Source of the DNA: Sphingobacteriales bacterium JAD_PAG50586_3
Lineage (GTDB): Bacteria > Bacteroidota > Bacteroidia > CAMBQF01
Direction of reading: 5' to 3'
Assembly (NCBI GenBank): GCA_023213195.1
Contig: CP096135.1
Span: 2,040,842 to 2,104,841 of the forward strand
DNA: 64,000 bases
In this document: positions 4,817 to 59,061 of the stretch, one piece after another
How the letters are laid out: every line of letters begins with the position of its first letter
How positions within the stretch are numbered: the first letter of the stretch is position 1
Notes under the pieces: model-generated
What the model saw: only the letters and a program-made list of their open reading frames with translations
What the model was told of the DNA's origin: nothing
Databases searched by the model: none
Program-made: the position numbers and the translations under genes

Positions 4817-7800
4817 ATGAAAAACAAGTACAATTTACATTTACTGTTACTTGTTTGCTTTTTAAGCGTCACGGGGATGCTTACTGCGCAAACACTGCGG
4901 GTACAGGGAAGGGTAACAAACCTGCGTTTATCAGACTGTTCTGACTGTAACAGCAGCGCCGACCCCAGGATTAACTCACGTATTAGTACCGCAGCCCAAC
5001 CTTGGTCTGCTGAGTACAAAAATGAACGTGATGATGTTGGATGTGATGGTGGCCTATCAACAAACCCCGGCATTTATGATGTTTCGGGTGTTGGTATTGG
5101 TGAAGCCTGGTGGGTTGACATCCGTGGTTTTGAGGATGATAACTTTATTTGCTCTGGCGATGATGGCGACTGTAACAGCTATTCAAGCCCTACAGCAATA
5201 TCAGGTGTTATTTTAACTACCTGGGCCCCAAGTTGTGCCGGTGCATGGAATAGCTTTACTGCACAAAGGACTTGTACATCGGGCGGAACCCAAACCTACA
5301 CTAGTGATACAGAATTGCGCTACCACTGGGTTGCTTCAAGCCTTACAAATGCAAATGCAGGCGGTACTGCCTCTTTATCGGTTTCGGCCGATGCCAGTAT
5401 TTGTGTGGGTACTAACCCATCTATTATTAATGGTACATCTTTATTATCAGACCGTTTTGCCGACCGCGATTGGGAATTGAGCTTTAATGGCGGAGGCTTT
5501 ACTTCGTTAGGAAGTGGTGGTCAAAACTACGACCCCCAACATTAAACACTCCCGGTACCTACGTTTACCGTAGAAGGCTGGCTTATTGTACAGACTATAC
5601 CGGTGGAACAACCAGCGTGTATTCTAATACAGTTACTATTGTTGTTAACCCAATAAGGAGTACTGCATTTAACTATTCTGCATCAGCTTACTGCCAAAAC
5701 GCTAGCGACCCTACACCAACAGTAACCCTTAGCGGTGGTACGTTTACAGCTACACCGGCAGGTTTATCTATAAATGCATCTACTGGTGCTATTGATGTTT
5801 CAATATCTACCCCTGGGTCTTATACTGTTACTTACACCCAATCAAATCCTTGTCCTGCATCGCCAACCAGTGTTACTGTAACCATTAACGCGGCAGGCGT
5901 TTCTAACTTTAACTATGCAAATAACTCATATTGCCGCAATGGTATAGACCCTGTGCCGGCAGTTTCTGTTTTAGGTGGCACATTTAGCGCTACCCCGGCA
6001 GGTTTATCATTAGACGTTAACAATGGTACTATTGATGCTTCTGCATCTTCAGCAGGTTCTTATGTTGTTACCTACAACTCTGGTGGCACTTGCCCAACTA
6101 CAACAACAGATAACGTAACTATTGTAAACGCTGACAATGCTACGTTTGCTTACGGTTCTGCCAGTTACTGTATCAATGGTTCAGACGCATCGCCAAGCGT
6201 TTCAGGTTTAGCAGGCGGTACATTCTCTGCACCATCAGGCTTATCAATTGACCCTTCTACGGGTGTTATTGATGTATCAGCTTCTACAGCAGGCGGCCCT
6301 TATACCATTACCTATACAACTAATGGTGCGTGCCCTAACACTTCTACCCAGTCAGTATCTATTACGGCGGCAGGTGTTTCTACCTTTAGCTATGCCAATA
6401 GCTCTTATTGCCAAAATGGAACAGACCCAACGCCTTCTGTTACTGCATTGGGCGGTACTTTTAGCGCAACACCTGCAGGCTTATCATTTAACAATAGCAC
6501 AGGTTTTATAGATCTTTCTGCATCAGCAGCAAATACATATAGTATTACTTACAACTCTGGTGGTCCTTGCCCAACAACAACTACCAATACGGTAACTATA
6601 GTTGCAACAGACGATGCTACATTCAGCTACGGTTCTACTACCTACTGTAAAAATGCAGGTACTAACCCAGCGCCAACCATTACAGGTTTAGGTGGTGGTT
6701 CTTTCTCTGCTACATCAGGTTTGGTAATTGATGGCACTACAGGCGAAATTGACCTTGTTGCGTCTACAGTTGGTGGCCCGTACACAATAACTTATTCTAC
6801 CAACGGCCCATGCCCAACTAGTTCAACCCAATCTGTTACTATTGTAGCAGCTGGTAATTCTACATTTAGCTTTGCCCAAAACACATACTGTAAAAACGCA
6901 GCTAACCCAACGCCAAGCATATCGGCTCCGGGTGGTTCATTTACAGCTACCGCAGGTTTAGTTATAGACAACTCTACCGGACAGATTGATTTAGCAGCTT
7001 CTACAGCAGGTGGCCCATACACGGTAACTTATACCAGCACTGCGCCATGCCAAACACAATCTACCTTTACTATTAATATTACCCCTGCTGATGATGCATC
7101 TTTCAGCTACACTACAAACAGCTACTGTACTAACGGTACTAACCCTGTACCAACGATTACAGGTTTAGCAGGCGGTGTGTTTACTGCACAGTCTGGCTTA
7201 TTTGTAAACAGCGCAACCGGCGAGGTTAACTTAAGTGCATCTACTCCGGGTGGCCCATACACTGTAACCTACACTACAACCGGTGCTTGCCCTGCAAGTG
7301 CTACGTTTGCAATAGCTATTACAGGTGCCGATAACCCATCATTCAACTTCACCCAAGCATCGTACTGCCAAAACTCAGGTACTAACCCTGTAGCTAACAT
7401 TACAGGCTTACCGGGTGGTTCATTTACATCTGCCCCCGCAGGTTTAGTAATTGATGGAACAACAGGCGAGATTGATTTATTAGCATCAACCGTTGGTGGC
7501 CCATACACAGTTACCTATACTACAACAGGTGCTTGTGCCGCATCGCAAAACCAAACAGTAACTATTACTGTTGCCGATAACTCATCGTTTGCTTTTGCCG
7601 ACCCATCAATATGTATTAACGGTACTAACCCAACGCCTACTATTACAGGCTTAACAGGCGGTATATTCTCAGCATCGCCTGCCGGTTTAGATATTAACGC
7701 TTCTACAGGTTTAATCAACCTGGCTAACTCTGCAGTAAACACTCCATTTACAGTTACTTATTTAACTACAGGTGCCTGCCCAACATCTACCACACAGTCA

Positions 7801-10800
7801 ATTATATTATTGCCTGCCCCGGTAGTATCGTTTAGTGGTTTAGACCCTGAGTACTGTATCAGCGAGCCTACTGTTACCCTTGCAGGTTCTCCTGCCGGTG
7901 GTACATTTAGCGGCTTAGGCATTATTGGTAACACGTTTAGCCCAACATTAACTGTTGCCGGCCAACATGTTATTACATACTCTTATACTGATGGCAATGC
8001 TTGTTCTAACACATCAACCCAAACTGTTCAAATTAACGGTTTACCATTTGTTAGCTTAAGCGGTTTAGCTACATCATACTGTACAGATAATTCAAACCCT
8101 GTAGCCTTAACTATACTTCCTGCTGCAGGTGGTACACTTTCTGGTCCTAGTATTTCAGGTACCGATTTTGTTCCATCAAACGCAGGTACAGGTTTTGTAA
8201 CTATTACCTATACTTATACTGATGTTAACGGTTGTTCTAATACATCAACCCAAAATACTGTTGTTAACGCATTACCTGTTGTAGGTATCAGCGGCTTAGC
8301 CAATGCGTACTGCGTAAGCGCATCGCCTGCTAACTTAGGGGGTATACCTAACGGTGGCACTTTTAGCGGCACAGGTATATCGGGCAACACATTTGACCCA
8401 GCAGTAGCCGGTATAGGTACATTTACTATTACCTATGCTTATACTGATGGTAACTCTTGCTCTAACTCTACTACGCAAAACGTAACGGTTAACGACCTTC
8501 CGGTTGTATCAATTTCTAACCTTGCCAATGCTTACTGTGAAGATGCAGGCCCAATCAACCTTATAGCAACACCTCCGGGCGGTTCTTTTACAGGTATTGG
8601 TGTATCAAACAACCAGTTATTCCCATCTATTGTAAACGGTAACCAAACATTGGTAACCTATACCTATACTGATGGTTTAAGCTGTTCAAACTCTACATCT
8701 CAGCTTGTTACTATTAATGATTTACCGGTTGTAAGCTTTACAGGCCTTAACCCTGAGTACTGCGTAAGCGCAGGCCCTGTTACTTTAACAGGCACACCGG
8801 GTGCTGGTACATTTAGCGGTGCTGGCATATCAGGTACTACTTTTGACCCTGCAACAGCAGGCGTAGGCACACACGTAATTACCTTTGCTTATACCGATGG
8901 TAACTCTTGCTCTAATAGCGCTACCCAAACAGTGGTTGTAAATACTCTGCCATTCGTAGCTATCAGCAACTTACAATCTGCATACTGTGTTAGTGTTACT
9001 AACGTTCCATTAACAGGTATACCAGCAGGTGGCACATTTAGCGGTATTGGCGTAAGCGGTAACACTTTTAGCCCGGCTACTGCAGGCCAAGGTTCGCACA
9101 CCATTACCTACACTTATAGCGATGGTAACGGTTGCTCTAACACTGCTACACAAGTAGTAGCTGTTAACCCACTTCCAACATTATCTATAAGCGGCTTAGG
9201 CGCTGCATACTGTGTTGATGCTGCTCCTGTAAACATTGGTGGCTCACCTGTGGGTGGCACATTCAGTGGTTCAGGTATATCAGGCAACACATTTAGCCCT
9301 GCACTAGCCGGTGCCGGTACTTATAACATTACTTACTCTTATACCGATGGTAACGGCTGTTCTAACACAGCTACCCAGGGTGTTGTTGTAAACGCACTTC
9401 CTGTTGTTGCATTTAGCGGCTTAAACTCTACCTACTGTATTGGTAACGTTACCCCACAAGCACTAATTGGTGCCCCAGCGGGTGGCACATTTACCGGTGC
9501 AGGTATTTCAGGTACAGACTTTACTCCATCTGCAACAGGTGTTGGTACACACGTTATTACTTATAGCTATACCGATGTTAACTCTTGTTCAAACTCAGTA
9601 AGCCAAACAGTAACTGTAAACAACTTCCCACAAGTTGCTATAACTAACCTTGCGGCTCAATACTGTATATCAGCAGGTGTACAAACCCTAAGTGGTTTGC
9701 CATCGGGCGGTATATTTAGCGGCACAGGTGTAACCGGTGTTAGCTTTGACCCTGCAGCAGCAGGTGTAGGTATACATACTGTTACTTATACTTATTCTGA
9801 TGTTAATGGCTGTTCAAACACTGCTACCCAACAAGTACAGGTATATGCCCAGCCAACGGTTACTATCAGCGGTTTAGCTTCTACCTTCTGCTCTAACGAT
9901 GCTGCTGTAACCTTTACCGGTACACCTTCTGGTGGAACATTCAGCGGCCCTGAGCGTATCCGGTAACACATTCTTCCCAGCTATAGCAGGTGCAGGTGTA
10001 CATACCGTAACCTATGCTTATACAGATGGTAACGGTTGTGGTAACACCGCTACACAACAAGTAACGGTAGCACCAGCCCCAAGCCCTGTAATATCTGGCT
10101 TAGCCGCAAGCTACTGTATTAGCGCTAACCCTGTAACTGTAAACGTAACACCAGCCGGTGGTACATTCAGCGGTCCGGGCATGTCGGGTAATACCTTTAC
10201 CCCACAAACTGCCGGTGCAGGTTCTCACACTATTACATATACTGTAACCAGCGGAGGTTGTACAGGTACAACATCTGTACAGGTAATTGTTAACCCACTT
10301 CCAACAGTTGGTTTTGCGGGCTTACTAAATGCTTACTGCACCACATCGGCTGATGTTCAAATGACAGCTTTCCCTCAAGGTGGCTCATTTACAGGCACAG
10401 GTGTGTCGGGCAACATATTCAGCCCATCGCAAGCCGGTGTAGGTACATTTACCGTTAACTACTCGTATACTGATGGTAACCTTTGCTCTAACTCATACTC
10501 TCAGTTTGTAACCGTAAACCCTGCTCCGGTAGTATCGTTTACAGGTTTAGGCACTGCTGAGTACTGCGAAGATGCGGTTCCGGTTACTTTAACTGGTACT
10601 CCTGCCGGTGGCACATTTAGCGGTCCAGGCATGTCTGGCGATAACTTTAACCCAACATTTGCGGGTGCCGGTACACACACCATTACCTACCAATACACTA
10701 CAGGTAACGGTTGCAGCGGTACAAGCACACAAACAGTTGTTGTTAACGCTACTCCATCTGTTCAAATTACAGGCCTAAGCAGCAACTACTGTGTTGATGC

Positions 10801-12415
10801 TGCCCCTGTAAACTTAACAGGCAACCCAAGCGGTGGTACATTTAGCGGCCCGGGCGTTGTTAGCAACACATTTACCCCAGCTAACGCCAGCATTGGCCAA
10901 AACATTATTACCTACACTTATACTGATGGTAATACTTGCGCCGGTAGCATCCAACAAATTGTAAACGTTACTCCGCTAGATAATGCTACGTTCTTCTACG
11001 GCCAGTCTGCTTATTGCCAAACAGGCCTAACCAATCCAACACCAACCGTTACAGGTACTTTAGGTGGAACATTTAGCGCTTCTCCTGCGGGCTTAAGCAT
11101 TAACCCTGCTACAGGTTTAATTACATTAGGTGGCAGCACAGCCGGTACTTACACTGTAACATACACTACTAATGGCATTTGCCCTGCAAGCCAAACCTTT
11201 AGCGTATCTGTTACTAACGGTGCCAACGCAGGCTTTAACTATTCTTCTGCACAGTTCTGTAATAACCTAACCAACCCACAGCCTAACATTACCGGCGACT
11301 TTGGTGGTTCTTTCACAGGCTCTAACGGTATTGTAGTTAACCCTGTAACAGGCGAGATTGACCTTGCAAACAGCTCTACCGGTACATTTACCGTTACCTA
11401 CACTGTAGGTGGTTCTTGCCCTGGTTCAACTACTGCCAGCGTAACTATTTCTCAGGCCGATAACGCAGCGTTTGAATACCCATTGTATACTTATTGCCAA
11501 TCATCAACCCTAACACCAACACCTACCATTACCGGTAACCTTGGCGGTGTATTCAGCGGTTCTAATGGTTTATCAATAAGCTCTGTAAACGGTACAATAG
11601 ACTTGTTGGCCAGCCAACAAGGTGTTAATACCGTTACGTACACTACAAGCGGTGTTTGCCCTGCTACTTTCACTCAACAGGTATTCATCAACAATGGTCC
11701 TGTGGCTGATATTACTGCTAATGGCCCAACTACCTTCTGCTTTGGCGGTTCAGTATTGTTAGATGCCGGTTCTGGTTATTTTGATTACCAGTGGAGCACA
11801 GGTGTTAACACGCCTGTTATCAGCGCTTCATCATCTGCTAACTACTGGGTAGTTGTTACCGACTCGTCGGGTTGTTCTTCTAGCGATACTATGTCGGTTC
11901 TTGTTATTCAGGACCCTAACGCATCGTTCACGTTCAACACCTTCAGCCTAACAGCCAGCTTCTCTAACCTGTCAGACAATGGTCAAAGCTTCCTATGGAT
12001 ATTTGGCGATGGTCAGCCAAACTCTACAGAGCCTAACCCTGTTCACACCTATACTGATGATGGCACTTACCAGGTTACTTTAGTTGTAACCAACATTTGT
12101 GGTACAGATTCTATCACCATACCGGTTACAGTTATGAAAATTGGTATAGAAGAGCAACCTGTAGTATCTGCATTCAACTTATATCCAAACCCAACAGAGG
12201 GTAACATTACTGTTACTTTTGATGTTCCGTCTAAACAAAACGTAGGCATTATGCTTACCGATGTTACAGGCCGTATGGTTATGAGCGAAGCACTACAAGG
12301 CTACACAGGCACGTATACTAAACAATACAACTTTGATTACTTAGACCGCGGCGTATACTTATACAGCATACGCACCCAAAACGGTGTAATAACCAAACGT
12401 ATTGTACTTAACTAA
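4817..12415 (+). CDS. Giant T9SS-secreted repetitive surface adhesin (~2530 aa) with a signal peptide, about 25 tandem Ig/HYR-like modules of ~80 and ~95 aa, a PKD domain and a C-terminal Por-secretion (T9SS) sorting domain. It is split into three ORFs (4817-5545, 5617-9966, 9932-12415) by two single-base indels.
   Basis: Signal peptide MKNKYNLHLLLLVCFLSVTGMLTAQ. DNA-level tandem repeats of ~240 bp (5617-7800, 10950-11700) and ~285 bp (7800-10950). PKD motif WIFGDGQ..NPVHTY. CTD LYPNPTEGNITVTF...VYLYSIRTQNG. The frames rejoin across the C5 run at 5533-5537 and across ccctgAgcg at 9948-9956, where other repeat copies read GPGVSGNTF. Confidence 0.85.
5617..11700 (+). repeat. Intragenic tandem coding repeats of the giant adhesin (two module types, ~240 bp and ~285 bp periods)
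   Basis: Recurring protein motifs ...YC.N..(D/N)P.P....L.GG.F.A.P.GL... and ...LP.V.ISGL...YC......L.G.P.GGTFSG.GISGNTF.PA.AG.G.H.ITY.YTDGNGCSNT.TQ.V.VN..P. Confidence 0.85.
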
Positions 12416-13701: not shown

Positions 13702-13750
13702 TCAGTAGTCAGAATTCAGTAGTCAGAGGTCAGGGTTCAGTAGTCAGAAG
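13702..13750 (+). repeat. 7 x 7-bp tandem repeat (TCAGTAG-like) immediately after the iscS stop codon
   Basis: TAA|tcagtag tcagaat tcagtag tcagagg tcagggt tcagtag tcagaag. A related array lies after the S8 protease stop at 22077-22111. Confidence 0.8.
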
Positions 13751-14970
13751 GTATAAGTTTTGTCTTCCCTTACTCTATGTAGCTAATTCTCAATTTTCGC
13801 GGAGTTTTTTTGTAAAGTATTTTCATGCTCTACAATACCTAATGCACCAACAACTCTCCCTTTTAAAGGGAGTACCTCCAACGTAGTTGGAGGGGAGGGA
13901 TTATTTGCCAATCCCTACAGCATGTCCCAAAGGGATGCCTTTGGCATAGCTAATACACTCGTTTTCGAGGCTGCATTTTAAAGGTCCCTCTCATTGAGAG
14001 GGTGGATGTAGCCAATGGCGACAGACGGGAGAGGGTATTTTTAGGGTGCCGCACGTTGTTATGTCTTTATTTTTCATTTTTAGCTTTTCGTTTTTCATTT
14101 ATAAAACCCTTACAGCGTGTCCCAAAGGGATGCCTTTGGCATAGCTAATGCACTCATTTTCGCGCCCAATTTTTAAGGCTCTCCCCTGCAAAGGGGAGTA
14201 CTCCTATCTCGCTTAGGCGAGATAGGAGGGAGGTATTTCCTCTCCCGTCATCCACCTGACGGCGGCTGCTACCTCCGCCCGGATGAATCCATTCGGACGG
14301 GCTCTCAATGAGAGGGACCTTTCATCTATCCTCATAATTAATAATTCATAATTACTAATTATTGAAAAACACCTTTAGGCAACCTGCCGTAGCAAATCGC
14401 CTAAAAGTGACAATTTCTTATCATAACCGGTTAGCTACTGACCAACAGAATGGCCTGTTGTTTAAGCCTGTCCTCTTGCTAAACTGTTTATCTTAAACTC
14501 TCAATCTATACGCCCCTCTCCTTTGGGGGAGGGGTTGGGGTGGGGCTTCCATTAATTTCTGAATCGTAATAAGCATTGTAGGTACTATAATAAGTTCCCC
14601 CTTTTTAAAGGGGGTGTTTAGTGCAAAGCACTAAACGGGGGATTTTAAAACCTCGTAAAACTCTCCCTTGTAAAGGGAGTGGATGTCGCTACAAAGCGAC
14701 AGACGAGGGATTTCACCGCGCGGCTGTTTTCGTCATCCCGAACTTGTTTCGGGATCTCCTAATTAACCTTTAGGAAAGGGTTGTTTATTTGTATTTGCAA
14801 ATACGTTTACAAAGATACAACAATACAACATCATTTGTCAAGTGTAAAATAAACATTGTTAATAATTATTTTTATTAATAGATCGCAAAGCGCATACTTT
14901 GTAAACAACTCTCCCTTTTAAAGGGAGTACCTCCAACGTAGTTGGAGGGGAGGGATTTTAGTGTAGCGTA
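13751..14970. repeat. 1.2-kb gene-free region composed of several families of short hairpin-forming repeats (MITE/REP-like). The families recur elsewhere in the window.
   Basis: No ORF. The 52-bp unit caactctcccttttaaagggagtacctccaacgtagttggaggggagggatt occurs at 13851-13912 and 14906-14957, with an insertion variant at 16763-16850. cagcgtgtcccaaagggatgcctttggcatagctaat occurs at ~13918 and ~14113. The inverted pair ccctctcattgagaggg / ctctcaatgagaggg occurs at ~13990 and ~14305. cgtcatcccgaacttgtttcgggatc occurs at 14730-14755 and 730-755. Confidence 0.8.
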
Positions 14971-14971
14971 A

Positions 14972-16745: not shown

Positions 16746-16762
16746 AATGGAGCAAAGTTAAA

Positions 16763-17009
16763 CAACTCTCCCTTAATAAGGCCCGCCCGGATAAATGGAT
16801 TTATCCATTCGGACGGGGAGTACCTCCAACGCAGTTGGAGGGGAGGGATTATTAGCAACGAATTTATATTACCGCTTGGTGGGATTCCTGCTTTCGCAGG
16901 AATGACGTTTTAACTATAGTGGTTTAGTAATCTTTAAATCTATTTAATCTTGATTAATCTGCGGTTCAGACAAATAATCTATTTAATCTTGATTAATCTG
17001 CGGTTCAGA
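16763..17009. repeat. Intergenic repeats: a third copy of the 52-bp hairpin unit (with insertion) plus a direct duplication of atctatttaatcttgattaatctgcggttcagac
   Basis: 16763-16850 matches 13851-13912. The direct repeats at 16935-16968 and 16975-17008 end exactly at the pyrB stop. The same ttaatctgcggttcaga motif overlaps the kptA stop (15903-15920). Confidence 0.75.
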
Positions 17010-17948
17010 CTACGCTTCTGAAATATTCTTTTGCCCCGCCAGCAGGTACAGCACCGCCATACGCACCGCAACACCGTTTTCTACCTGGTCTAGTATAATA
17101 GACTGGTCAGAGTCGGCTACATCGCTAGTAATCTCTATGCCACGGTTTATAGGGCCGGGGTGCATTATGGTAATCTTCTTGCTAAGGCTGTCAAGGCGCT
17201 CTTTGTTAAGGCCATACAGCATGGTATACTCCCGCAACGATGGGAAGTACTTAATATCCTGCCTTTCCAGCTGAATGCGCAGCATATTGGCAACATCGCA
17301 CCACTCCAGGGCCTTCATCAGGTTAGGTTCAACACGAACTCCTAGCGATGTGATGAATTTAGGCATTAGGGTAGGAGGGCCGCACACTACCACTTCGGCA
17401 CCCATTTTATTTAGTAGAAAGATGTTTGACAGCGCTACACGCGAGTGCAGAATATCGCCTACAATAGCCACTTTAAGGCCTTTAAGGCTGCCGTGCACCT
17501 CCAGCATTGAGTAGGCATCTAACAACGCTTGTGTAGGGTGCTCGTGCGCGCCATCTCCGGCGTTTACAATTTTGGCCTTTATGTGTTTGGCAAGGAACAC
17601 GCCCGCACCCGGTTTTGGGTGGCGCATTACTACCATATCCACCTTCATGGCCAATATGTTGTTTACGGTATCAATAAGGGTTTCGCCCTTGCTAACGGAT
17701 GATGATGATGCGGCAAAGTTTACCACATCGGCACTCAGGCGTTTCTCGGCCAGCTCAAACGATAAGCGGGTACGGGTACTATTCTCAAAAAACAGGTTAG
17801 CAATGGTTACATCGCGCAGCGATGGCACCCGTTTTATCGGACGGTTTAAAACCTCTTTAAACTGTTTGGCGGTAGATAAAATAAGCTCAATGTCAGACAC
17901 CGTAAGGTCTTTAATTCCTAATAAGTGTTGTACGCTTAAAGCTGACAT
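17010..17948 (-). CDS. pyrB: Aspartate carbamoyltransferase catalytic subunit
   Basis: ENSTRTR carbamoyl-phosphate motif, HPxQ, 312 aa. Confidence 0.9.
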   Translation of the reverse strand: MSALSVQHLLGIKDLTVSDIELILSTAKQFKEVLNRPIKRVPSLRDVTIANLFFENSTRTRLSFELAEKRLSADVVNFAASSSSVSKGETLIDTVNNILAMKVDMVVMRHPKPGAGVFLAKHIKAKIVNAGDGAHEHPTQALLDAYSMLEVHGSLKGLKVAIVGDILHSRVALSNIFLLNKMGAEVVVCGPPTLMPKFITSLGVRVEPNLMKALEWCDVANMLRIQLERQDIKYFPSLREYTMLYGLNKERLDSLSKKITIMHPGPINRGIEITSDVADSDQSIILDQVENGVAVRMAVLYLLAGQKNISEA

Positions 17949-17980: not shown

Positions 17981-18502
17981 TTACCTATGGTCTGTTCCTT
18001 CATTTTCTACCCACTCTACCTTTACCTTTTGGCTTTGTATGGTATCTACCACACGGCCTACATAATCGGGCTGTATAGGCAGGTGGCGACTATAGCGGCG
18101 GTCTACAAAGGCCAGCAGCTCTACACTTGCAGGGCGGCCAAATTGCAGCAGCGCTTCCATAGCGGCGCGTATGGTGCGGCCGGTATACAATACATCGTCT
18201 ACCAGCACCACTTTTTTATCTTCAATTAAAAAATCAATATTGGTATCGTAAGCCGCTAAAGGCTCTGCCTGGTGCCGAAAATCGTCGCGGTAAAAGGTAA
18301 TATCCAGCGTGCCCGATGTTATGTTTTGTTGGGTAATATCCTTTAACTGTTTAGCCAACCGGTTAGCTACGTAAGCCCCGCGTGGTTGTATGCCAATAAT
18401 AACAGTGTCAGAAAAAGAATTGTGATTTTCAATCAACTCATAACAAAGGCGGCTCAGCGTCAGCTTAAATTCATCCGGACCTAGCAGCACTTTATGGGTC
18501 AT
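17981..18502 (-). CDS. pyrR: Bifunctional pyr operon regulator/uracil phosphoribosyltransferase PyrR
   Basis: PRTase motif VVLVDDVLYTGRTIRAA. Start chosen at the internal MTHKVLL. Confidence 0.85.
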   Translation of the reverse strand: MTHKVLLGPDEFKLTLSRLCYELIENHNSFSDTVIIGIQPRGAYVANRLAKQLKDITQQNITSGTLDITFYRDDFRHQAEPLAAYDTNIDFLIEDKKVVLVDDVLYTGRTIRAAMEALLQFGRPASVELLAFVDRRYSRHLPIQPDYVGRVVDTIQSQKVKVEWVENEGTDHR

Positions 18503-18561
18503 GCTGCAAATATAGTGGTTTACATCAAATTTAGAATAAAAATTTCCCCATATCAATTTAA

Positions 18562-18813
18562 GTGCTCAGTACGTCTCCCGCCCTTTGAATTTGAGGTTAG
18601 AAAACCGGCATAGCGTTTTGAAACGGGGTACCCGCAGAGAAAGTGAACGTCCCGCTTGCCGGGAAAGCGCGCGCTGTTTGAAGTCACGCAAGGCGTGACG
18701 AGTTTGCGCGGTTTAGTGAACGCCCTCGTAGCGGGTCGTTGAAAAATGCAGCCGGGAGTTTTCTTTGTTTCGTTTCTTTTGCGGAAAAAGAAATGAAAAC
18801 CGCCGGTAGGCAA
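18562..18813 (-). ncRNA. Conserved ~230-bp structured element in the pyrR 5' leader (copy B); second copy upstream of ansA. Candidate cis-regulatory RNA or MITE.
   Basis: The reverse complement aligns with 56918-57150 with a near-identical core aaaccgcgcaaactcgtcacgccttgcgtgacttcaaacagcgcgcgcttt and conserved hairpins. Both copies end 45-60 bp before the start codon of the downstream gene, in the same relative orientation. Confidence 0.45.
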
Positions 18814-19131
18814 TAAAGAATTAACAGGTAGGAATTTAACCCCCTCCTAATATTAGGAGGGGGCAGAGGGTGGTAGCTTTTGTAAGGTTTTCCCCACTAC
18901 CCCGTCTAATAAACCAAATGCAATAAGCGGGTGTTCTATACTTAGATAAACGCTGTTTTATCTGTTTTGGCATAGGGCTTGCATTATTAACACTAAGGGC
19001 AAATACTTGTGAAAAACTTACAGGCGTACCCTTTAAAATGGTAAAAGTATTTTGACTAATTATGGAGAAGTAATTTTACCCAAGAACCACCAAGCAAAAT
19101 GCTTGGCGTAAAATGTAAAAATTTAACGCCT

Positions 19132-27820: not shown

Positions 27821-28568
27821 CTATACCATAAATTCTACCTCTTTAAAGCCAAAAGCCCTTTGCCCGGTAGATGTTTCCATTATTAATTTTCCTTCGGCAC
27901 TAACCGCTTTTATGCTGCCGGTAAAGGCATCGCCGTAGGCACCATATACCCGCTCCTGGTTATAAAACAGCAGGTTTTCAATATAGCGGTCGTACAAATC
28001 GGTAAAGCGCAGGGCTTTTAGCAACAGGTATTCCGCCTCCAGGTAATCTAAAAAGCTTTCTAAAAGGGGTTCAATAGCATTCTTTTTGCCCGTTATCAAC
28101 TTAACCGATGTTGCATTGCGCAGCTCCTCATCAAACAAATCCTGGTTTATATTCAGGCCAATGCCAATAACGCTGAAGCCCAGGTTTTGCCCCCGTAAGG
28201 TGTTCTCTATCAGTATGCCGGCTATTTTATCGTAATCAACATAAATATCGTTGGGCCACTTTATTTTAGCATCAATGCTTAACTCGTTCTTCAAAAATTT
28301 AACCAGCGCCTAAGGCATACGGCCATATTAAGGTAAAACTGCTGGGTAGCGGCTAAAAAACGGGTTCATAAATAACGCTAAAGGTAAGGTTCTCGCCGGG
28401 TTCGCTAAGCCATTTGTTCTCGCGCTGGCCCCGCCCTGCGGGTTGGTGGTAGGCGGCATACACTGTCCCCTCGGCAACCAAACCTTTTTTAATTTGGTTA
28501 CCGGCAAACTCGTTGGTAGAATTTAAATGATCGTACCAAACAATGGGTTTACCCGTAAATAGCGACAT
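27821..28568 (-). CDS. birA: Biotin--[acetyl-CoA-carboxylase] ligase BirA (class I), interrupted by two homopolymer frameshifts
   Basis: N-terminal GRGQRENKWLS and C-terminal KIKWPNDIYVDYDKIAGILIE motifs. The pieces 28353-28568 and 27821-28294 rejoin via a T6 run (~28343) and a GG/GGG run (~28306). Confidence 0.8.
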
Positions 28569-28738
28569 GGTTAAACAATTATGGCTGCAAAATTATTAAT
28601 TAATAGCCCAGCTTATTACGGTAGTTATACAATAAAGATTAAACTGCTGCGTCTACCAACTTAGTAAGGCCAAAATGCCGGGGTAACCCTACTTAATAAA
28701 AAAACGTACTTTTACCCCTTAATACTATTTAATAATTG

Positions 28739-29372
28739 ATGGCAAAGAAAGTTACACCCGAAACAACAACAACTAAAAAAGCAGCCCCTAAAAAAGCGGC
28801 GGTAAAAACGGTAAAGGCCGATAAACCTGCTAAAGTTGTAAAAGATAAAGTGGCAGCCCCTAAAAAAGCGGCTGTAAAAAAGTAGCAGCTAAAGCACCGG
28901 CTACAGATAAAGCGGCTCCTAAAAAGGTTGCAGCAAAAAAAGCGGCCCCTAAAAAGGCAGCGGCAAAAAAGGCGGCTACCAAAGTAGCTAAGCCACTTAA
29001 AAAAGTAGAAACAGACCCTGCGCAGTTGCTTATTGATACAATTGTAGATGGTATGCTTGATAAAAAAGCCCACCATATTTTGGTGCTGGATTTACGCCCT
29101 ACCGGCAACTCTGTGGCCGATTGGTTTATTATATGCCACGGTAACTCTAATACCCAAGCCGATGCTATTGCAGACTCGGTTGAAGATACCGTTAGAAAAA
29201 ACTGAACGAGAAACCTTGGCATACCGAAGGTTTTCAAAATGCGGAATGGATTTTGTTAGACTACGTAAACGTTGTTGTTCACGTGTTCCAGGAGCCTATC
29301 CGCGAATTTTATCGTTTAGAAGACCTGTGGGCGGACGCGCCTGTGGTTAAAATTGAAGAATCTTTTAAATAA
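28739..29372 (+). CDS. rsfS: Ribosomal silencing factor RsfS (Iojap) with an N-terminal Ala/Lys-rich histone-H1-like extension; two A-run frameshifts
   Basis: MAKKVTPETTTTKKAAPKKAAVK... then HILVLDLRPTGNSVADWFIICHGNSNTQADAIADSV and LDYVNVVVHVFQEPIREFYRLEDLWADAP. The frames rejoin at A-runs ~28873 and ~29206. The reverse-strand ORFs in the track are spurious. Confidence 0.8.
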
Positions 29373-29435
29373 TAAGTTAGGTTACTGCAGAACCAAAGCG
29401 CACAACGTTTGTTAATACTAGCAGAAAGAAACAAA

Positions 29436-31652
29436 ATGTCTGATAATCAAGAAAAGAACACCAACCCGGGGAACAACCAAAACCCGTTTAACCGCATGCG
29501 CGACTCGTTTGGCGGCGGTAATAAAAAGCCGGGCGATAAAAAGCCCAAATTTACCTTTAGCTTATACTGGATATATGCAATTTTAGCTATTGCTTTTATT
29601 GCTATTACATACTCTGACTTTGGCGGCGGCATAAAAACCTTAGATGCCCCTAAAGACTTTTACCAGGACATGCTTTTAAAAGGCCATGTTGAAAAGGTAG
29701 TTATTGTTAAGCGTAACGATGAGGCCGAGATTTACATCAAAAAAGACTCGTTGCTTAGCCCTAAATACAAGGCATATTACGAGCAAAAACTAGGTGTTAA
29801 AAAATTCAGTATACTGATAAGCGCCCCCAGTTTAAACTGAACATTACCAAGCCCGAAGATTTTGAAAAGCAGCTTACCGATTTTCAGGATAAGAATGCTG
29901 TAGCCCCTGAGAACCGCGTTATTGCCGAAACCAACAACGATAAAGATTGGGGTGGCGATATTATAAGCATACTGCTACCTATTGTGGTTATTGTGCTTAT
30001 ATGGATGTTTATTATGCGTCGTATGGGCGGTGGTGCCGGTGGCGGTGGCCAAATATTTAATATTGGCAAGTCTAAAGCTACCTTGTTTGATAAAGATACC
30101 CAGGTAAACATAACCTTTGATAATGTTGCCGGCTTAGATGAAGCCAAGGTAGAGATTAAAGAGATTGTAGATTTCCTTAAACATCCTAAAAAGTATACAT
30201 CGCTCGGGGGTAAAATACCGCGCGGGGCACTGTTAATAGGCCCTCCCGGTACCGGTAAAACCCTTTTGGCTAAAGCTGTAGCAGGCGAGGCTCAAGTGCC
30301 TTTCTTCTCGCTATCGGGTTCAGATTTTGTGGAGATGTTTGTGGGCGTGGGTGCAAGCCGCGTGCGCGACCTTTTCCGTCAAGGCAAAAGAAAAAGCGCC
30401 GTGTATTATATTTATTGATGAGATTGATGCCATTGGTCGTGCCCGTGGCCGCAACGCCATGCAAGGCGCTAACGATGAGCGCGAGAACACCCTTAACCAG
30501 TTGCTTACAGAGATGGACGGCTTTGGTACCAACAACGGTGTTATTATACTAGCAGCTACCAACCGTGCCGATATTCTGGACCGTGCATTACTTCGCCCGG
30601 GCCGATTTGACCGCCAGATATTTGTAGACCTGCCCGATTTAGTGGGCCGTCGCGAGATTTTTCAGGTGCATTTAAAACCACTTAAGCTTGATCCGCATTT
30701 AGACCTTGAGTTTTTGGCTAAACAAACCCCCGGTTTCTCAGGTGCTGATATTGCTAACGTGTGTAACGAGGCTGCCCTTATTGCCGCCCGTAAAAACAAA
30801 GAATCTATTGGCAAGCAAGATTTTCTTGATGCCGTAGACCGTATAATTGGTGGTTTAGAGAAGAAAAACAAAATCATATCTAAACAAGAAAAAGAGGTTA
30901 TTGCTTACCACGAGGCAGGCCACGCCGCAACCAGCTGGTTGTTGCGCTACGCCCACCCCTTGTTAAAAGTAACCATAGTACCCCGTGGCCGCTCTTTAGG
31001 CGCTGCATGGTACCTACCCGAAGAACGCCAGATAACTACTACAGAGCAGTTAATGGACGAGATGGTAGCAACCCTGGGTGGCCGTGCTGCCGAAGAGGTG
31101 GTGTTTGGTAAAATATCTACCGGCGCCCTTAGCGACCTTGAGAAAGTAACCAAACAGGCTTATGCCATGGTTACCGTATATGGCCTTAACGCCAAGCTGG
31201 GTAATATCAGCTATTACGATAGCAGTGGTCAGGAGTATTCATTCTCTAAACCCTATAGCGAGAAACGCTCAGAAACTATTGACGATGAAGTAAGCAAAAT
31301 GATTGCAGGAGCTTATGAAGTTGCCAAGAAGATACTTATTGAAAACAAAGATAAGCTGACCAAACTGGCCGAAACGCTGTTGGAGAAAGAGGTTATCTTC
31401 CGCGAAGATTTAGAAGAGATTTTTGGTAAACGCCCGTTTGAAGACGAGGAGGATATTGAAGGCTTAAAAGGCGATTATAACGCCGCTAAAATAGAGGAGG
31501 AAGCCAAACTGCGTGAGCAAGGTAAAGACGAAGAGGCTAAAAAGGTTGATGAATCTCCGGCTACCGAAAGGCCCCGCGATTTAGGTGACACCATAGTGCA
31601 GCCACCCCCACCAAAAGACGAAGACAAACCTGAAGATAAGCAGGAAGTTTAG
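29436..31652 (+). CDS. ftsH: ATP-dependent zinc metalloprotease FtsH, interrupted by two frameshifts
   Basis: TM helix plus periplasmic domain. Walker [30 protein letters not shown], zinc site HEAGHA, KE-rich C-terminal tail. The frames rejoin at the C5 run 29826-29830 and at ~30385. Confidence 0.9.
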
Positions 31653-56146: not shown

Positions 56147-56911
56147 ATGGTTATTACAGATACCCACACCCACCTGTATGCCACAGAGTTTACCGAGTAT
56201 ATTGATGAGGTAATAAGCAGAGCACAAGAAGCGGGAGTAAATAGGTTTTTTCTGCCTAATGTTGATTTAGCTACTGCTGATGCGTTGGTGGCTTTAGCCA
56301 AGCGCTACCCCGGTGTTTGCTACCCTATGATGGGCCTGCATCCCTGCCATGTAAAAGAAAATTTTGAGGAAGAACTGGCAGCCTTGTTTGCCTATTTTGA
56401 CCGCGAAACATTTTGTGCCGTGGGCGAGATTGGCATTGACCTGTATTGGGATAAAACAACGTTGGATATTCAGACTACAGCATTTAAAAGGCAGGTAGAG
56501 TTTGCCATAGAACGTAAGCTGCCTATCTGTATACACAGCCGCGAATCGTTTGATGTGATAGCCGATATATTGGAAGAGTACAAAGGCAAAGTAACAGGCG
56601 TGTTTCATTGCTTTACAGGTAATCTGGCGCAGGCAGAACGTGCCATAGGCTTTGGCTTTATGCTTGGCATTGGCGGTGTGCTTACCTTTAAAAATTCAGG
56701 GCTTGATACGGTGGTTAAAGACATTGACTTAAAGCATTTAGTGTTAGAAACAGATTCGCCCTACCTAGCACCGGTGCCACACCGTGGTAAGCGTAACGAG
56801 AGTGCCTATACTGCTTTGGTAGCGCAAAAACTGGCTGATATTAAGCAAATGCCTTTAGCAGAACTGGCTAGGATTACTACCGAAAATTCAATAAAATTAT
56901 TCAATATTTAA
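56147..56911 (+). CDS. tatD: TatD family hydrolase/DNase
   Basis: N-terminal DTHTHL, IGEIGLD, HSR, and C-terminal ETDSPYLAP motifs. Confidence 0.85.
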   Translation: MVITDTHTHLYATEFTEYIDEVISRAQEAGVNRFFLPNVDLATADALVALAKRYPGVCYPMMGLHPCHVKENFEEELAALFAYFDRETFCAVGEIGIDLYWDKTTLDIQTTAFKRQVEFAIERKLPICIHSRESFDVIADILEEYKGKVTGVFHCFTGNLAQAERAIGFGFMLGIGGVLTFKNSGLDTVVKDIDLKHLVLETDSPYLAPVPHRGKRNESAYTALVAQKLADIKQMPLAELARITTENSIKLFNI

Positions 56912-56917
56912 GTATAT

Positions 56918-57150
56918 CGCCTACCGGCGGGGTTTTCATTTCTTTTGGCAGCAAAAGAAACGAAACAAAGAAAACTGCCGGCGGTATTTCTCAACGACCA
57001 GCTACGGGTTGTGTGCTAAACCGCGCAAACTCGTCACGCCTTGCGTGACTCAAACAGCGCGCGCTTTACCCGCCTACGGCGAGGCCGCTTACTTCCCTTG
57101 CTGGTTCCCGTTTCGAAATAAAAGCCGGATAGTAGTGCGCAAAGCGCACT
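56918..57150 (+). ncRNA. Conserved ~230-bp structured leader element (copy A) upstream of ansA; homologue of 18562-18813
   Basis: See copy B. Contains the hairpins ttcttttggcagcaaaagaa, gtcacgccttgcgtgac and gtgcgcaaagcgcac. It ends 46 nt before the ansA ATG. Confidence 0.45.
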
Positions 57151-57195
57151 TAGGGTTTTAAAAGAAGATACTACCTTAGCACCTAAGTTTACATT

Positions 57196-58221
57196 ATGGC
57201 AAAAAAATCGGTTTTAATAATATATACGGGCGGTACTATAGGTATGGTGGCCGATAGGCGCACAGGTAGCCTTAAAGCGTTTGATATTGGGCATATTTTA
57301 AAGAATGTGCCCGAGTTGGGTAAGATGAACCTGCGCTTAGAGTCGGTGTCGTTTGCGCAGCCTGTAGACTCGTCAGATATTCAACCTAAACACTGGATAG
57401 AGATAGCCGAATTGGTTTATAAAAACTACAATGCCTTTGATGGCTTTGTGGTGTTGCATGGTACTGATACTATGGCCTATACCGCATCGGGTGTTAGCTT
57501 TTTGCTGGAGAACCTAGGCAAGCCCGTAATATTTACCGGGGCGCAATTGCCTATTGGGGTGCTGCGTACCGATGCTAGGGAAAACCTGATAACATCGGTA
57601 GAGTTGGCAGCCCATAGCACTAATGGTAAACCCACAGTGCCCGAGGTGTGTGTGTACTTTAAAAACCAACTATACAGGGGCAACCGCTCGCATAAAATAA
57701 ACTCGGAACTATTACAGGCATTTAACTCTGTTAACTATCCTGTATTGGCCGAGGCCGGTGTAAACCTAAACTTTTATGATGATGCTATTGCCAGCCAGCC
57801 CATACTTCCCATTAAACTATACAAAAAGCTGGATAGCAACATTGCTATACTAAAGATATTCCCCGGCCTTAGTGCCGATGTAGTAAAGGCCGTAACAGCT
57901 ATAAAAGGCTTAAAGGCGCTGATACTGGAAACATACGGAAGTGGCAATGCCCCTACCGAAAAATGGTTTGTTAGCGCCATTAAGCAGGCTGTAAACAGCG
58001 GGTTGATAGTGTTGAATGTAACACAGTGCTATGGTGGTGCGGTAGAGCAGGGCAAGTACGAAACAAGCAGGCAACTGGATGAGGTAGGCGTTGTTGGCGG
58101 TGCCGATTTAACAACCGAAGCTGCGGTAGCTAAGCTGATGTTTTTGCTGGGTAATTATAAAAGCAAAGAAGAGATACTGGAATTGCTGGGAGAGCCTATG
58201 CGTGGCGAATTAACCCTTTAA
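57196..58221 (+). CDS. ansA: Type I (cytoplasmic) L-asparaginase
   Basis: N-terminal TGGTIGM threonine motif, HGTDTMAYTAS, 341 aa. Confidence 0.85.
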   Translation: MAKKSVLIIYTGGTIGMVADRRTGSLKAFDIGHILKNVPELGKMNLRLESVSFAQPVDSSDIQPKHWIEIAELVYKNYNAFDGFVVLHGTDTMAYTASGVSFLLENLGKPVIFTGAQLPIGVLRTDARENLITSVELAAHSTNGKPTVPEVCVYFKNQLYRGNRSHKINSELLQAFNSVNYPVLAEAGVNLNFYDDAIASQPILPIKLYKKLDSNIAILKIFPGLSADVVKAVTAIKGLKALILETYGSGNAPTEKWFVSAIKQAVNSGLIVLNVTQCYGGAVEQGKYETSRQLDEVGVVGGADLTTEAAVAKLMFLLGNYKSKEEILELLGEPMRGELTL

Positions 58222-58305: not shown

Positions 58306-58497
58306 TTACGCTAAACGTACGTTTACCGCGTTAAGGCCTTTTTTGCCTTCTTGAGTGTCAAAGGTAACTTTGTCATTCTCGCGAACTGGTTGAGATAAAC
58401 CAGAAACGTGAACGAAAATTTCTTTGTTAGAGTTGTCGTCTACAATAAAGCCAAAACCTTTAGATTCATTGAAAAATTTAACTGTACCGGTGTTCAT
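58306..58497 (-). CDS. cspA: Cold-shock protein (CspA family), copy 1
   Basis: KFFNESKGFGFI and VHVS RNP motifs. 63 aa. Confidence 0.9.
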   Translation of the reverse strand: MNTGTVKFFNESKGFGFIVDDNSNKEIFVHVSGLSQPVRENDKVTFDTQEGKKGLNAVNVRLA

Positions 58498-58595
58498 GGG
58501 TAATAATTGTTAATTGTTTATTATTTATTGATTATTTAGATGTAAGGCGCAAAAACACCTGCAAAAATTATTGCAGGTATTGTTGCGGTGGTAAT

Positions 58596-58786
58596 TTACG
58601 CTAATTTAACGTTGATAGCGTTTAAACCTTTTTGCCTTGCTGCACATCGTAAGTAACGTTATCGTTTTCACGAATTTCTTGAGCTAAGCCTGAAACGTGA
58701 ACGAAGATTTCTTGTCCTGAGCCGTTTTCTGTAATAAAACCAAAACCTTTTGATTCATTAAAAAATTTTACTGTACCTGAGTTCAT
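58596..58786 (-). CDS. Cold-shock protein, copy 2 (A5 versus A6 run gives an apparent frameshift 8 codons before the end)
   Basis: MNSGTVKFFNESKGFGFITENGSGQEIFVHVSGLAQEIRENDNVTYDVQQGKK then a frame change at ggcaaaaaggttt. Not in the ORF track because it is split. Confidence 0.8.
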
Positions 58787-58870
58787 TGTAATTTATTGTT
58801 TATTGTATATTAAATTTTAAGTGTTGGGTGCAATAGGCCGCAAGTACTGCGGGGTATTGCAGGGGGTAAA

Positions 58871-59061
58871 CTAGGCTAACTTTACGTTAACGGCGTTTAA
58901 ACCTTTTTGCCTTGCTGAACGTCGAAAGTAACGTTATCGTTTTCACGAATTTCCTGAGCTAGACCTGATACGTGAACGAAGATTTCTTCGCCTGACGCGC
59001 TGTCTGTAATAAAACCAAATCCTTTTGATTCATTAAAAAATTTTACTGTGCCTGTTTTCAT
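58871..59061 (-). CDS. Cold-shock protein, copy 3 (same A5-run frameshift)
   Basis: MKTGTVKFFNESKGFGFITDSASGEEIFVHVSGLAQEIRENDNVTFDVQQGKK... Confidence 0.8.

Follow-up and report, generated by a model that had tools for sequence, protein, structure and literature searches.

The 64,000-nt stretch of DNA analysed here, hereafter the window, belongs to Sphingobacteriales bacterium JAD_PAG50586_3, an uncultured freshwater bacterium of the GTDB order AKYH767 represented by a circular metagenome-assembled genome (CP096135.1, 4.16 Mb). It carries two copies of a folded element, one upstream of pyrR-pyrB (copy A; PyrR is UPT69141.1) and one upstream of the asparaginase gene ansA (copy B; AnsA is UPT65197.1). 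The element has inserted at two unrelated loci, consists of two hairpin domains (D1 and D2), and is constrained at ansA. Comparison with related loci indicates that it is a lineage-specific dispersed repeat and not an ancestral regulatory leader. The explanation we favour, at somewhat better than even chances, is a structured insertion element of the ERIC/YPAL/CIR kind that now has a cis role; we infer that it was mobilised in trans and that the copies still present exert a cis effect on the gene next to them. To our knowledge, no member of the order AKYH767 (Bacteroidota) is in culture, and no repeat families have been described from it.

An earlier note on this DNA had aligned the reverse complement of positions 18562-18813 with 56918-57150 around a nearly identical core. 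BLASTN bears out the alignment, with 83.6% identity over 207 nt at E 1.5e-51 (A 18815->18616, B 56915->57118), and the mean column identity is 79% once the flanks are included (MAFFT). The core is in fact identical over 32-34 nt and occurs twice in the window, against none expected from shuffles. The extent proposed earlier stands only in part: homology covers 18811-18615 and 56919-57119 and ceases to be significant at ~18603-18615 in copy A and 57119-57134 in copy B, and the 3' tails to 18562 and 57150 are no more similar than chance would allow (172 of 500 shuffles score equally). For those coordinates, the 45-60 nt reported to separate the element from the start codons is correct (from 18562 to the pyrR ATG at 18502 and from 57150 to the ansA ATG at 57196). 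The element thus measures ~200-210 nt as a conserved unit and 260-285 nt as inserted, with 58-59% G+C in its core. The 15-nt 5' stretch and 41-53-nt 3' tail of the pyrR-site insert are absent from copy B, and the 3' tail of the ansA insert is kept in two related loci (L023 and L021, 53/61) and not in copy A. Both copies are intergenic and lie in sense to the next gene, an agreement in orientation with a 50% chance expectation; copy B starts 8 nt past the tatD stop codon, and TTAA precedes both copies (n = 2). A repeat search of the window recovered the A/B pair and no further copy, and an nhmmer profile matched only copies A and B there (E 1e-75 to 1e-83). Profile searches covering the 64-kb window and 193 kb of related loci gave no further copy.

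Relatives without the element provide exact empty sites at ansA. In locus L014, whose AnsA is 90% identical, tatD and ansA overlap and the sequence reads ...gcataTAATGgcaaaaaaatc, with the element absent. At the same junction the window reads ...atatTTAA/gtatatcgcc...(284 nt)...tttacatt/ATGgcaaaaaaatc, where slashes mark the boundaries of the insert. The same one-base TAATG overlap occurs in 10 further contigs (1 of P0121 and 9 of P0255, which at 94% is the AnsA cluster closest to the window), and L022 reads TAACCATG, again with no element. Element-less ansA loci comprise L014, L017, L022, eight sequenced P0255 loci (L024-L031) and two contigs of the Joint Genome Institute (JGI) sample 3300059473 that are known from gene coordinates only. 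The right junction, ATT/ATGG, is confirmed by L021 and L023 and is therefore no assembly error. In L017, an unrelated 49-nt CCCCTCCCC/GGGGAG hairpin sits exactly at the tatD-ansA junction. Its twin lies in the window itself: a ~36-nt hairpin at 14512-14547 (GCCCCACCCC..AACCCCTCCCC..AAAGGAGAGGGG) is the reverse complement of the insert at L017:2904-2952. To judge from this pair, a second small mobile hairpin family appears to use the same junction.

The pyrR site presents a comparable picture. The spacer between algH (DUF179) and pyrR is 329 nt long in the seven contigs of one relative (L003-L009) versus ~630 nt in the window; a second relative (L010) aligns as the first does and likewise lacks the element. 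The extra DNA sits between two conserved anchors; L003 and L010 show ~60 nt in place of the window's ~360 nt. Loci L018-L020 (PyrR 88%) carry other hairpins at the element's place within flanks shared with the window (ATTCCT... and ...GGGGAAATTTT in L018), and they also share a palindrome at 18840-18863 and the proximal AAACCACTATATTTGCAGCATG. The similarity of a D1-like stretch in L018 lacks significance (53 of 1000 shuffles). Because the orthologous sites of most relatives lack the element at both pyrR and ansA, the two copies are insertions and not an ancestral leader, and both entered hot spots used by several small hairpin elements. The perfect palindrome CCCCCTCCTAATATTAGGAGGGGG at 18840-18863 stands ~30 nt from copy A; it is present in L018 and absent from L003 and L010, and is thus a separate, older insert.

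A third, full copy (copy C; L023:9721-10000, on a 3.55-Mb JGI contig) occupies the same tatD-ansA junction in another species. L021, which belongs with L023 to a second AnsA cluster at 89% to the window, has a partial copy, its short-read contig starting within the core, as would be expected were the 5' half repeated elsewhere in its genome. Copies B and C are identical at 256 of 277 positions (92.4%), including 66/67 in D1, 47/47 in the 5' arm of D2 and 53/61 in the tail, and their first 115 nt differ at just 2 positions. Between the window and L023, four-fold degenerate sites of the flanking genes ECH, tatD and ansA are identical at only 182 of 335 (54%; Fisher p 1e-27 versus the element); these genes are 83-85% identical overall, and two other spacers 78-80%. 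The contrast recurs between L021 and L023, with 155/159 in the element versus 120/156 at four-fold sites (p 1e-8), or 2.5% versus 23% divergence. Coding-flank identity is ordinary right up to the junction, which argues that no recombination tract brought the element in. Given 92% identity in the element against 54% at flanking four-fold sites, the retained ansA copy is either under constraint or far younger than the divergence of the species; its estimated rate is roughly ten-fold lower than that of synonymous sites, and avoiding selection as the explanation requires repeated independent recent insertions at one nucleotide. In the same loci, the 82-nt ansA-csp spacer is 100% identical between L021 and L023 though ansA differs at 23% of four-fold sites, and intergenic DNA of the clade is generally far more conserved than synonymous sites.

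The consensus fold of copies A, B and C (RNAalifold) consists of two long hairpin domains. D1 (~65 nt) pairs GCC..CCGGC..GGUUUUC.UUUCUUUU with AAAAGAAA..GAAAAC..GCCGG. D2 (~135 nt) is closed by the helices AUUUC/GAAAU, AACG/CGUU and ACCAGC/GCUGGU and encloses a CGCGC/GCGCG helix bearing the inner hairpin GTCACGC-CTT-GCGTGAC, together with a side hairpin, H3. The shared hairpins noted earlier are thus present, and compensatory changes retain them: four base pairs are kept through two-sided changes among the three sequences (for example ACCCGC/GCGGGT in A versus ACCAGC/GCTGGT in B and C), and the core hairpin and H3 vary in sequence and length from copy to copy, still forming hairpins in all three (the inner hairpin of copy C is GTCC-TGC-GGAC). 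With two or three sequences, the covariation lacks statistical confirmation, as 54 of 500 shuffles match the observed two-sequence values, and the conservation of paired versus unpaired columns gave no discriminating signal. The reverse strand of the element folds equally well, and RNA-level and single-stranded-DNA-level structure are therefore not separable. Copy A ends in its closing stem followed by TTTTCT, and in copies B and C a G+C hairpin and a U-rich run stand ~45 nt before the ATG. An Rfam 15 scan of the window at gathering thresholds returned only a tRNA and left the element unmatched, including by the PyrR element RF00515; with the E limit raised to 10, matches along the two copies were scattered, below threshold and never common to A and B.

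The element is non-coding, as the earlier note had concluded from an 86-aa open reading frame (ORF) that is intact over one copy and broken in the other. This ORF covers the pyrR copy (18553-18813, minus strand), and over the ansA copy there is just a 50-aa ORF, which leaves the frame of copy A between the core and H3. A gene for a small protein would account for the frame that stays open through D2 in all copies (A 86, B 50 and C 47 aa), and the indels that separate B from C offset one another. These frames start at TTG, however, and are shifted against one another over the middle third so that unrelated peptides result, stop codons are naturally scarce in G+C-rich hairpin DNA, and 12 concatenated frames searched against 5.8 billion proteins gave no relative at E up to 10. 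We consider such a gene close to negligible in probability and rejected it on the frame shifts between copies and the lack of a homologue. The assembly was made with Flye from Nanopore R9.4.1 reads alone, obtained from a Lake Zurich amoeba culture (PMC9583780). In the window, ftsH (29409-31652) is broken into three reading frames, with a shift near 30390 within an A-rich run, and matches to the biotin ligase region at 27824-28562 fall in two frames, which fits uncorrected Nanopore indels in an unpolished assembly. Single-nucleotide indels between the element copies are for this reason not to be trusted.

Promoter motifs place the two copies in their transcriptional context. The Bacteroidota -7 box has the consensus TAnnTTTG. 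In a motif scan, the only perfect matches on the pyrR strand between algH and pyrR are downstream of copy A, which for this reason probably lies upstream of the pyrR promoter and outside its leader. At pyrR and ansA alike, a TAnnTTT(G/A) box ends exactly 4 nt before the ATG (18507-18514; 57184-57191), a geometry that suggests leaderless or near-leaderless transcripts. The same scan found no Bacteroidota-type promoter motif upstream of either copy; a sigma-70 promoter scan was uninformative for Bacteroidota. GC skew turns from negative to positive (cumulative minimum) at ~28500-29300, at the divergent biotin ligase / RsfS-FtsH junction. This ~29-kb change may mark a replication origin or only an effect of gene orientation, and no enrichment of DnaA boxes was found there. 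It would put both copies on the leading strand (n = 2), so that their shared orientation is confounded.

Coordinates in the window of the element copies, their insertion boundaries and the neighbouring genes and predicted promoter boxes
Feature	Position	Strand	Remarks
Conserved unit, copy A	18615..18811	-	D1 18811->18748 and D2 18747->18615; BLASTN, nhmmer, consensus fold
Conserved unit, copy B	56919..57119	+	D1 56919-56985 and D2 56986-57119; BLASTN, nhmmer, consensus fold
Identical core, copy A	18683..18714	-	CGCGC...GTCACGC-CTT-GCGTGAC; inner hairpin 18699->18683
Identical core, copy B	57018..57049	+	inner hairpin 57033-57049
Largest lineage-specific insert at pyrR	18562..18828	-	copy A with 15-nt 5' stretch and 41-53-nt 3' tail; boundaries approximate
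Whole 284-nt insert at ansA	56912..57195	+	between tatD stop TAA (56909-56911) and ansA ATG (57196)
3' tail of ansA insert	57135-57195	+	hairpin GTGCGC-AAA-GCGCAC at 57135-57149
Terminator-like 5' edge, copy A	18799..18814	-	G+C hairpin GCC-TACC-GGC, then T-rich run
Terminator-like 5' edge, copy B	56917..56940	+	CGCC-TACC-GGCG, then GGTTTTCATT; begins 6 nt past tatD stop
Predicted -7 box TAAATTTG	18533-18526	-	TTG 20 nt upstream; between copy A and pyrR
Predicted -7 box TATATTTG	18514-18507	-	ends 4 nt before pyrR ATG; kept in relatives
Near-consensus -7 box TAAGTTTA	57184..57191	+	ends 4 nt before ansA ATG
pyrR	17981..18502	-	ATG at 18502; pyrB follows at 17010-17948 (-)
tatD	56147..56911	+	gene upstream of ansA; overlaps ansA in relatives
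ansA, type I asparaginase	57196..58221	+	ATG at 57196

Several families of small bacterial repeats offer points of comparison. ERIC/IRU elements (127 bp) have terminal inverted repeats, TA termini and target duplications, and in Yersinia their effect on mRNA stability depends on orientation (Delihas 2008, PMC2229807). The present element resembles ERIC in being small, non-coding, strongly folded, intergenic and present or absent at orthologous sites, and ERIC is co-transcribed with its neighbours; unlike ERIC, it shows no terminal inverted repeats, TA termini or clear target duplication, and the two share no sequence similarity. Closer in design are YPAL/RU-2 and CIR, structured repeats without classical terminal TA or terminal inverted repeats (PMC2229807). 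YPAL/RU-2 (168 bp, Yersinia) has internal inverted repeats, is not A+T-rich, lies beside dyad symmetries and makes 3-26-bp target duplications, and the 5' and 3' halves of CIR (Caulobacter/Brucella) form two independent long stem-loops (PMC2229807). Our element shares with them its two independent hairpin domains, a composition that is not A+T-rich (58-59% G+C in the core), its exclusively internal inverted repeats and, beside copy A, the pre-existing palindrome at 18840-18863; it differs in having imperfect flanking repeats only, and it has no sequence relationship to them and belongs to another phylum. It accordingly fits these structured repeats in kind, with no sequence homology.

Mobile hairpins of other designs were compared as well. 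REP sequences are 20-40-bp units with an unpaired tag; in those of the CGTC type the stem measures 8-9 bp and opens with A-T pairs, the loop has 4-5 nt and a CCA tail is present (PMC3733652). In common with REP/BIME/REPIN sequences (GTAG- or CGTC-tagged and moved by RAYT), the element consists of extragenic hairpins in mosaic clusters with other hairpins, a single-strand mobilisation being proposed for both, and CGTC stands at the foot of its core hairpin. An assignment to CGTC-type REP was rejected: the stem is 7 bp and G+C-rich (GTCACGC), the loop is CTT (3 nt), most of the tag is paired and the unit reaches ~200 nt. Palindrome-associated elements derived from IS200/IS605 lack target duplications, of which no clear case is seen here, and similarly have no terminal inverted repeats and are rich in hairpins, and both copies point the same way relative to the possible ~29-kb origin; unlike such elements, ours has no matching left- and right-end hairpins and no partner transposase in the window. 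The TTAA before both copies is a candidate only (n = 2) for the fixed 4-5-nt target, 5' of the left end, that such elements have along with subterminal hairpins and a partner Y1 transposase in the genome. With the RF00515 PyrR attenuator of pyr operons and with riboswitch leaders in general the element shares its place upstream of pyrR-pyrB, a folded RNA-like design and a conserved sequence; it differs from them in that it has no Rfam match, is not kept at the orthologous locus and, at copy A, has a probable promoter downstream.

A number of observations weigh against a mobile origin followed by a cis role. No terminal inverted repeats were found by a 6-nt-seed repeat search of both inserts, only internal ones. 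Nor is any target duplication clear-cut, the flanks holding imperfect repeats alone: compared with the empty TAATG, insert B has a duplication of at most 1 nt; an imperfect 8-bp repeat, TAAGTATA (56909-56916) and TAAGTTTA (57184-57191), flanks 56917-57183; and copy A is flanked by TTAATTCTTTAT/TTAAATTGATAT, matching at 8 of 12 bases. Should the 8-bp repeat represent a target duplication that has decayed, the mobile unit would span 56917-57183 and a 9-nt spacer would have stood at the ancestral junction; otherwise the insert is duplication-free. No transposase turned up among 50 window ORFs of at least 100 aa. The known loci number three (A, B and C), all from the window and the related loci, and the 16% difference between A and B within one genome gives no sign of a recent burst. 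The three species groups are equidistant (~54% at four-fold sites), leaving one gain indistinguishable from a gain and a precise loss; a single gain before the window and L023 lineages parted is no less plausible than any other history. A dedicated regulatory RNA would be at least as good an account of the conservation between B and C, which reaches 98% over D1 and the 5' arm of D2. Wider searches for relatives found nothing to extend the family: the exact core-hairpin pattern (AAACTCGTCACGCNNNGCGTGAC) gave chance coding-DNA matches only among 185,579 species genomes and JGI metagenomes, which says little on distribution as the hairpin is variable (copy C), and viral-contig scans and BLASTN against plasmids and phages returned nothing related.

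The earlier note had offered a cis-regulatory leader and an orientation-biased MITE (miniature inverted-repeat transposable element) as alternatives, and each survives in part. In the fuller form of the first, a riboswitch-like or protein-binding leader would place pyrR-pyrB and ansA under one aspartate or pyrimidine signal and would have spread by duplication in the lineage. Aspartate does connect the two pathways, and the shared orientation relative to the downstream gene, the strong constraint on the ansA copy in two species, the hairpins maintained by compensatory pairs, and a B/C hairpin and U-rich run ~45 nt before the ATG that could serve as an expression platform all speak for it. However, the element is missing at both loci in most congeners, an unrelated hairpin element occupies the same junction in L017, copies A and B share no 3' module and hence no common expression platform, and the conserved pyrR -7 box downstream of copy A probably leaves that copy outside the leader. 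Neither an Rfam match nor a PyrR-binding motif was found, and the limited significance of the covariation applies here as well. The idea of an aspartate riboswitch is not supported, and we regard the dedicated leader as possible but improbable; what persists of the earlier proposal is a cis function, kept alive by the 92% versus 54% identity, and not a conserved leader. The exact empty sites uphold the other half, an insertion and dispersed repeat that is small, non-coding, present in several dispersed copies and either filling or missing from orthologous sites, as MITEs are. A classical MITE of the Correia, RUP or ERIC type was nevertheless rejected, for want of terminal inverted repeats and a clear target-site duplication.

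Were the repeat purely selfish, that is, a non-autonomous transposon resembling MITEs or palindrome-associated transposable elements with no host function, the identity of B and C would have to stem from recent independent site-specific insertion or from gene conversion. The presence/absence pattern among equidistant species, the flanks without a recombination tract, the L021 contig that breaks within the element and the wealth of other small inserts in the genome agree with this. It demands, however, that the same nucleotide be hit independently in the window and L023/L021 lineages and that low divergence arise again within the L021/L023 lineage (2.5% against 23%); the distance between A and B in one genome speaks against homogenisation or a recent burst, and in the window neither terminal inverted repeats nor a clear target duplication nor a partner transposase is seen. 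We consider it rather unlikely. A family of trans-acting small RNA (sRNA) genes, or an sRNA derived from the tatD 3' untranslated region, lying upstream of pyrR and ansA by chance, would be in keeping with the conserved sequence and structure, a length of ~200-240 nt, the closing stem and TTTTCT at the end of copy A and the hairpin and U-rich run in B and C. Such an origin strikes us as very unlikely, for neither copy has a Bacteroidota-type promoter motif upstream, copy B begins only 8 nt past the tatD stop, A and B have unrelated 3' ends and Rfam offers no match.

Under the favoured explanation of a structured insertion element with a later cis role, one copy would have entered the algH-pyrR spacer in its variable part and another exactly between the overlapping tatD stop and ansA start, uncoupling both genes. 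As the element encodes nothing, an enzyme with its gene elsewhere would have had to move it in trans. The lack of terminal inverted repeats and of a clear target duplication, together with its hairpin construction, makes a single-strand, hairpin-recognising mechanism of the IS200/IS605 or RAYT type our best guess. Purifying selection on the ansA copy in two species would then imply that it acts in cis, most likely as a folded RNA in or next to the tatD-ansA transcript. Its 5' hairpin and U-run would terminate or insulate upstream transcription, and ansA would gain an independent start from the A+U-rich tail, which holds a -7-like box 4 nt ahead of the ATG. A bolder proposal, a new class of structured cis-regulatory RNA restricted to AKYH767 that is under strong purifying selection, controls ansA (and here also pyrR-pyrB) and inserts itself before start codons, we put forward only tentatively and think doubtful.

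Other repeats and conserved blocks surround these loci. Many other small palindromic inserts of the window are absent from L003, and window spacers are swollen by nested GGGAG/CTCCC-type hairpin repeats at 13702-14971 (1270 nt versus 393 nt in L003) and 16746-17009 (264 versus 156 nt); an identical 21-nt hairpin, ATCCCGAACTTGTTTCGGGAT, occurs at 734-754 and 14735-14755. By these comparisons, the lineage appears to host several small mobile hairpin families. Within the algH-pyrR spacer, a ~120-nt non-coding block (18935-19056) is nearly invariant among the window, L003, L010 and L018, where nearby four-fold sites are at ~54%; it has no Rfam match, varies too little for a fold test, and could be an algH or pyrR promoter or leader, or an RNA of some other kind. 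Elsewhere in the window, a very large repetitive ORF (~5546-12415) with ~225-240-nt tandem domain repeats corresponds to a ~2670-aa protein in L003, three tandem cold-shock-domain paralogues in units of ~275-289 nt lie at 58306-59061 (two in relatives), and 15-nt A-rich tandem repeats of lysine/alanine-type codons at 28759-28984 (AAAAAAGCGGCn...) may encode a histone-H1-like tail.

If the favoured explanation is true, a structured insertion has split a translationally coupled TAATG gene pair and then come under strong constraint, a mobile repeat turned cis-acting element. The case also carries a caution for motif hunters: a folded pair in the same orientation before metabolically linked genes resembled a riboswitch, and empty sites show the copies to be insertions. 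If instead the regulatory-RNA alternative holds, the element would represent a new RNA class, testable at a defined pair of loci.

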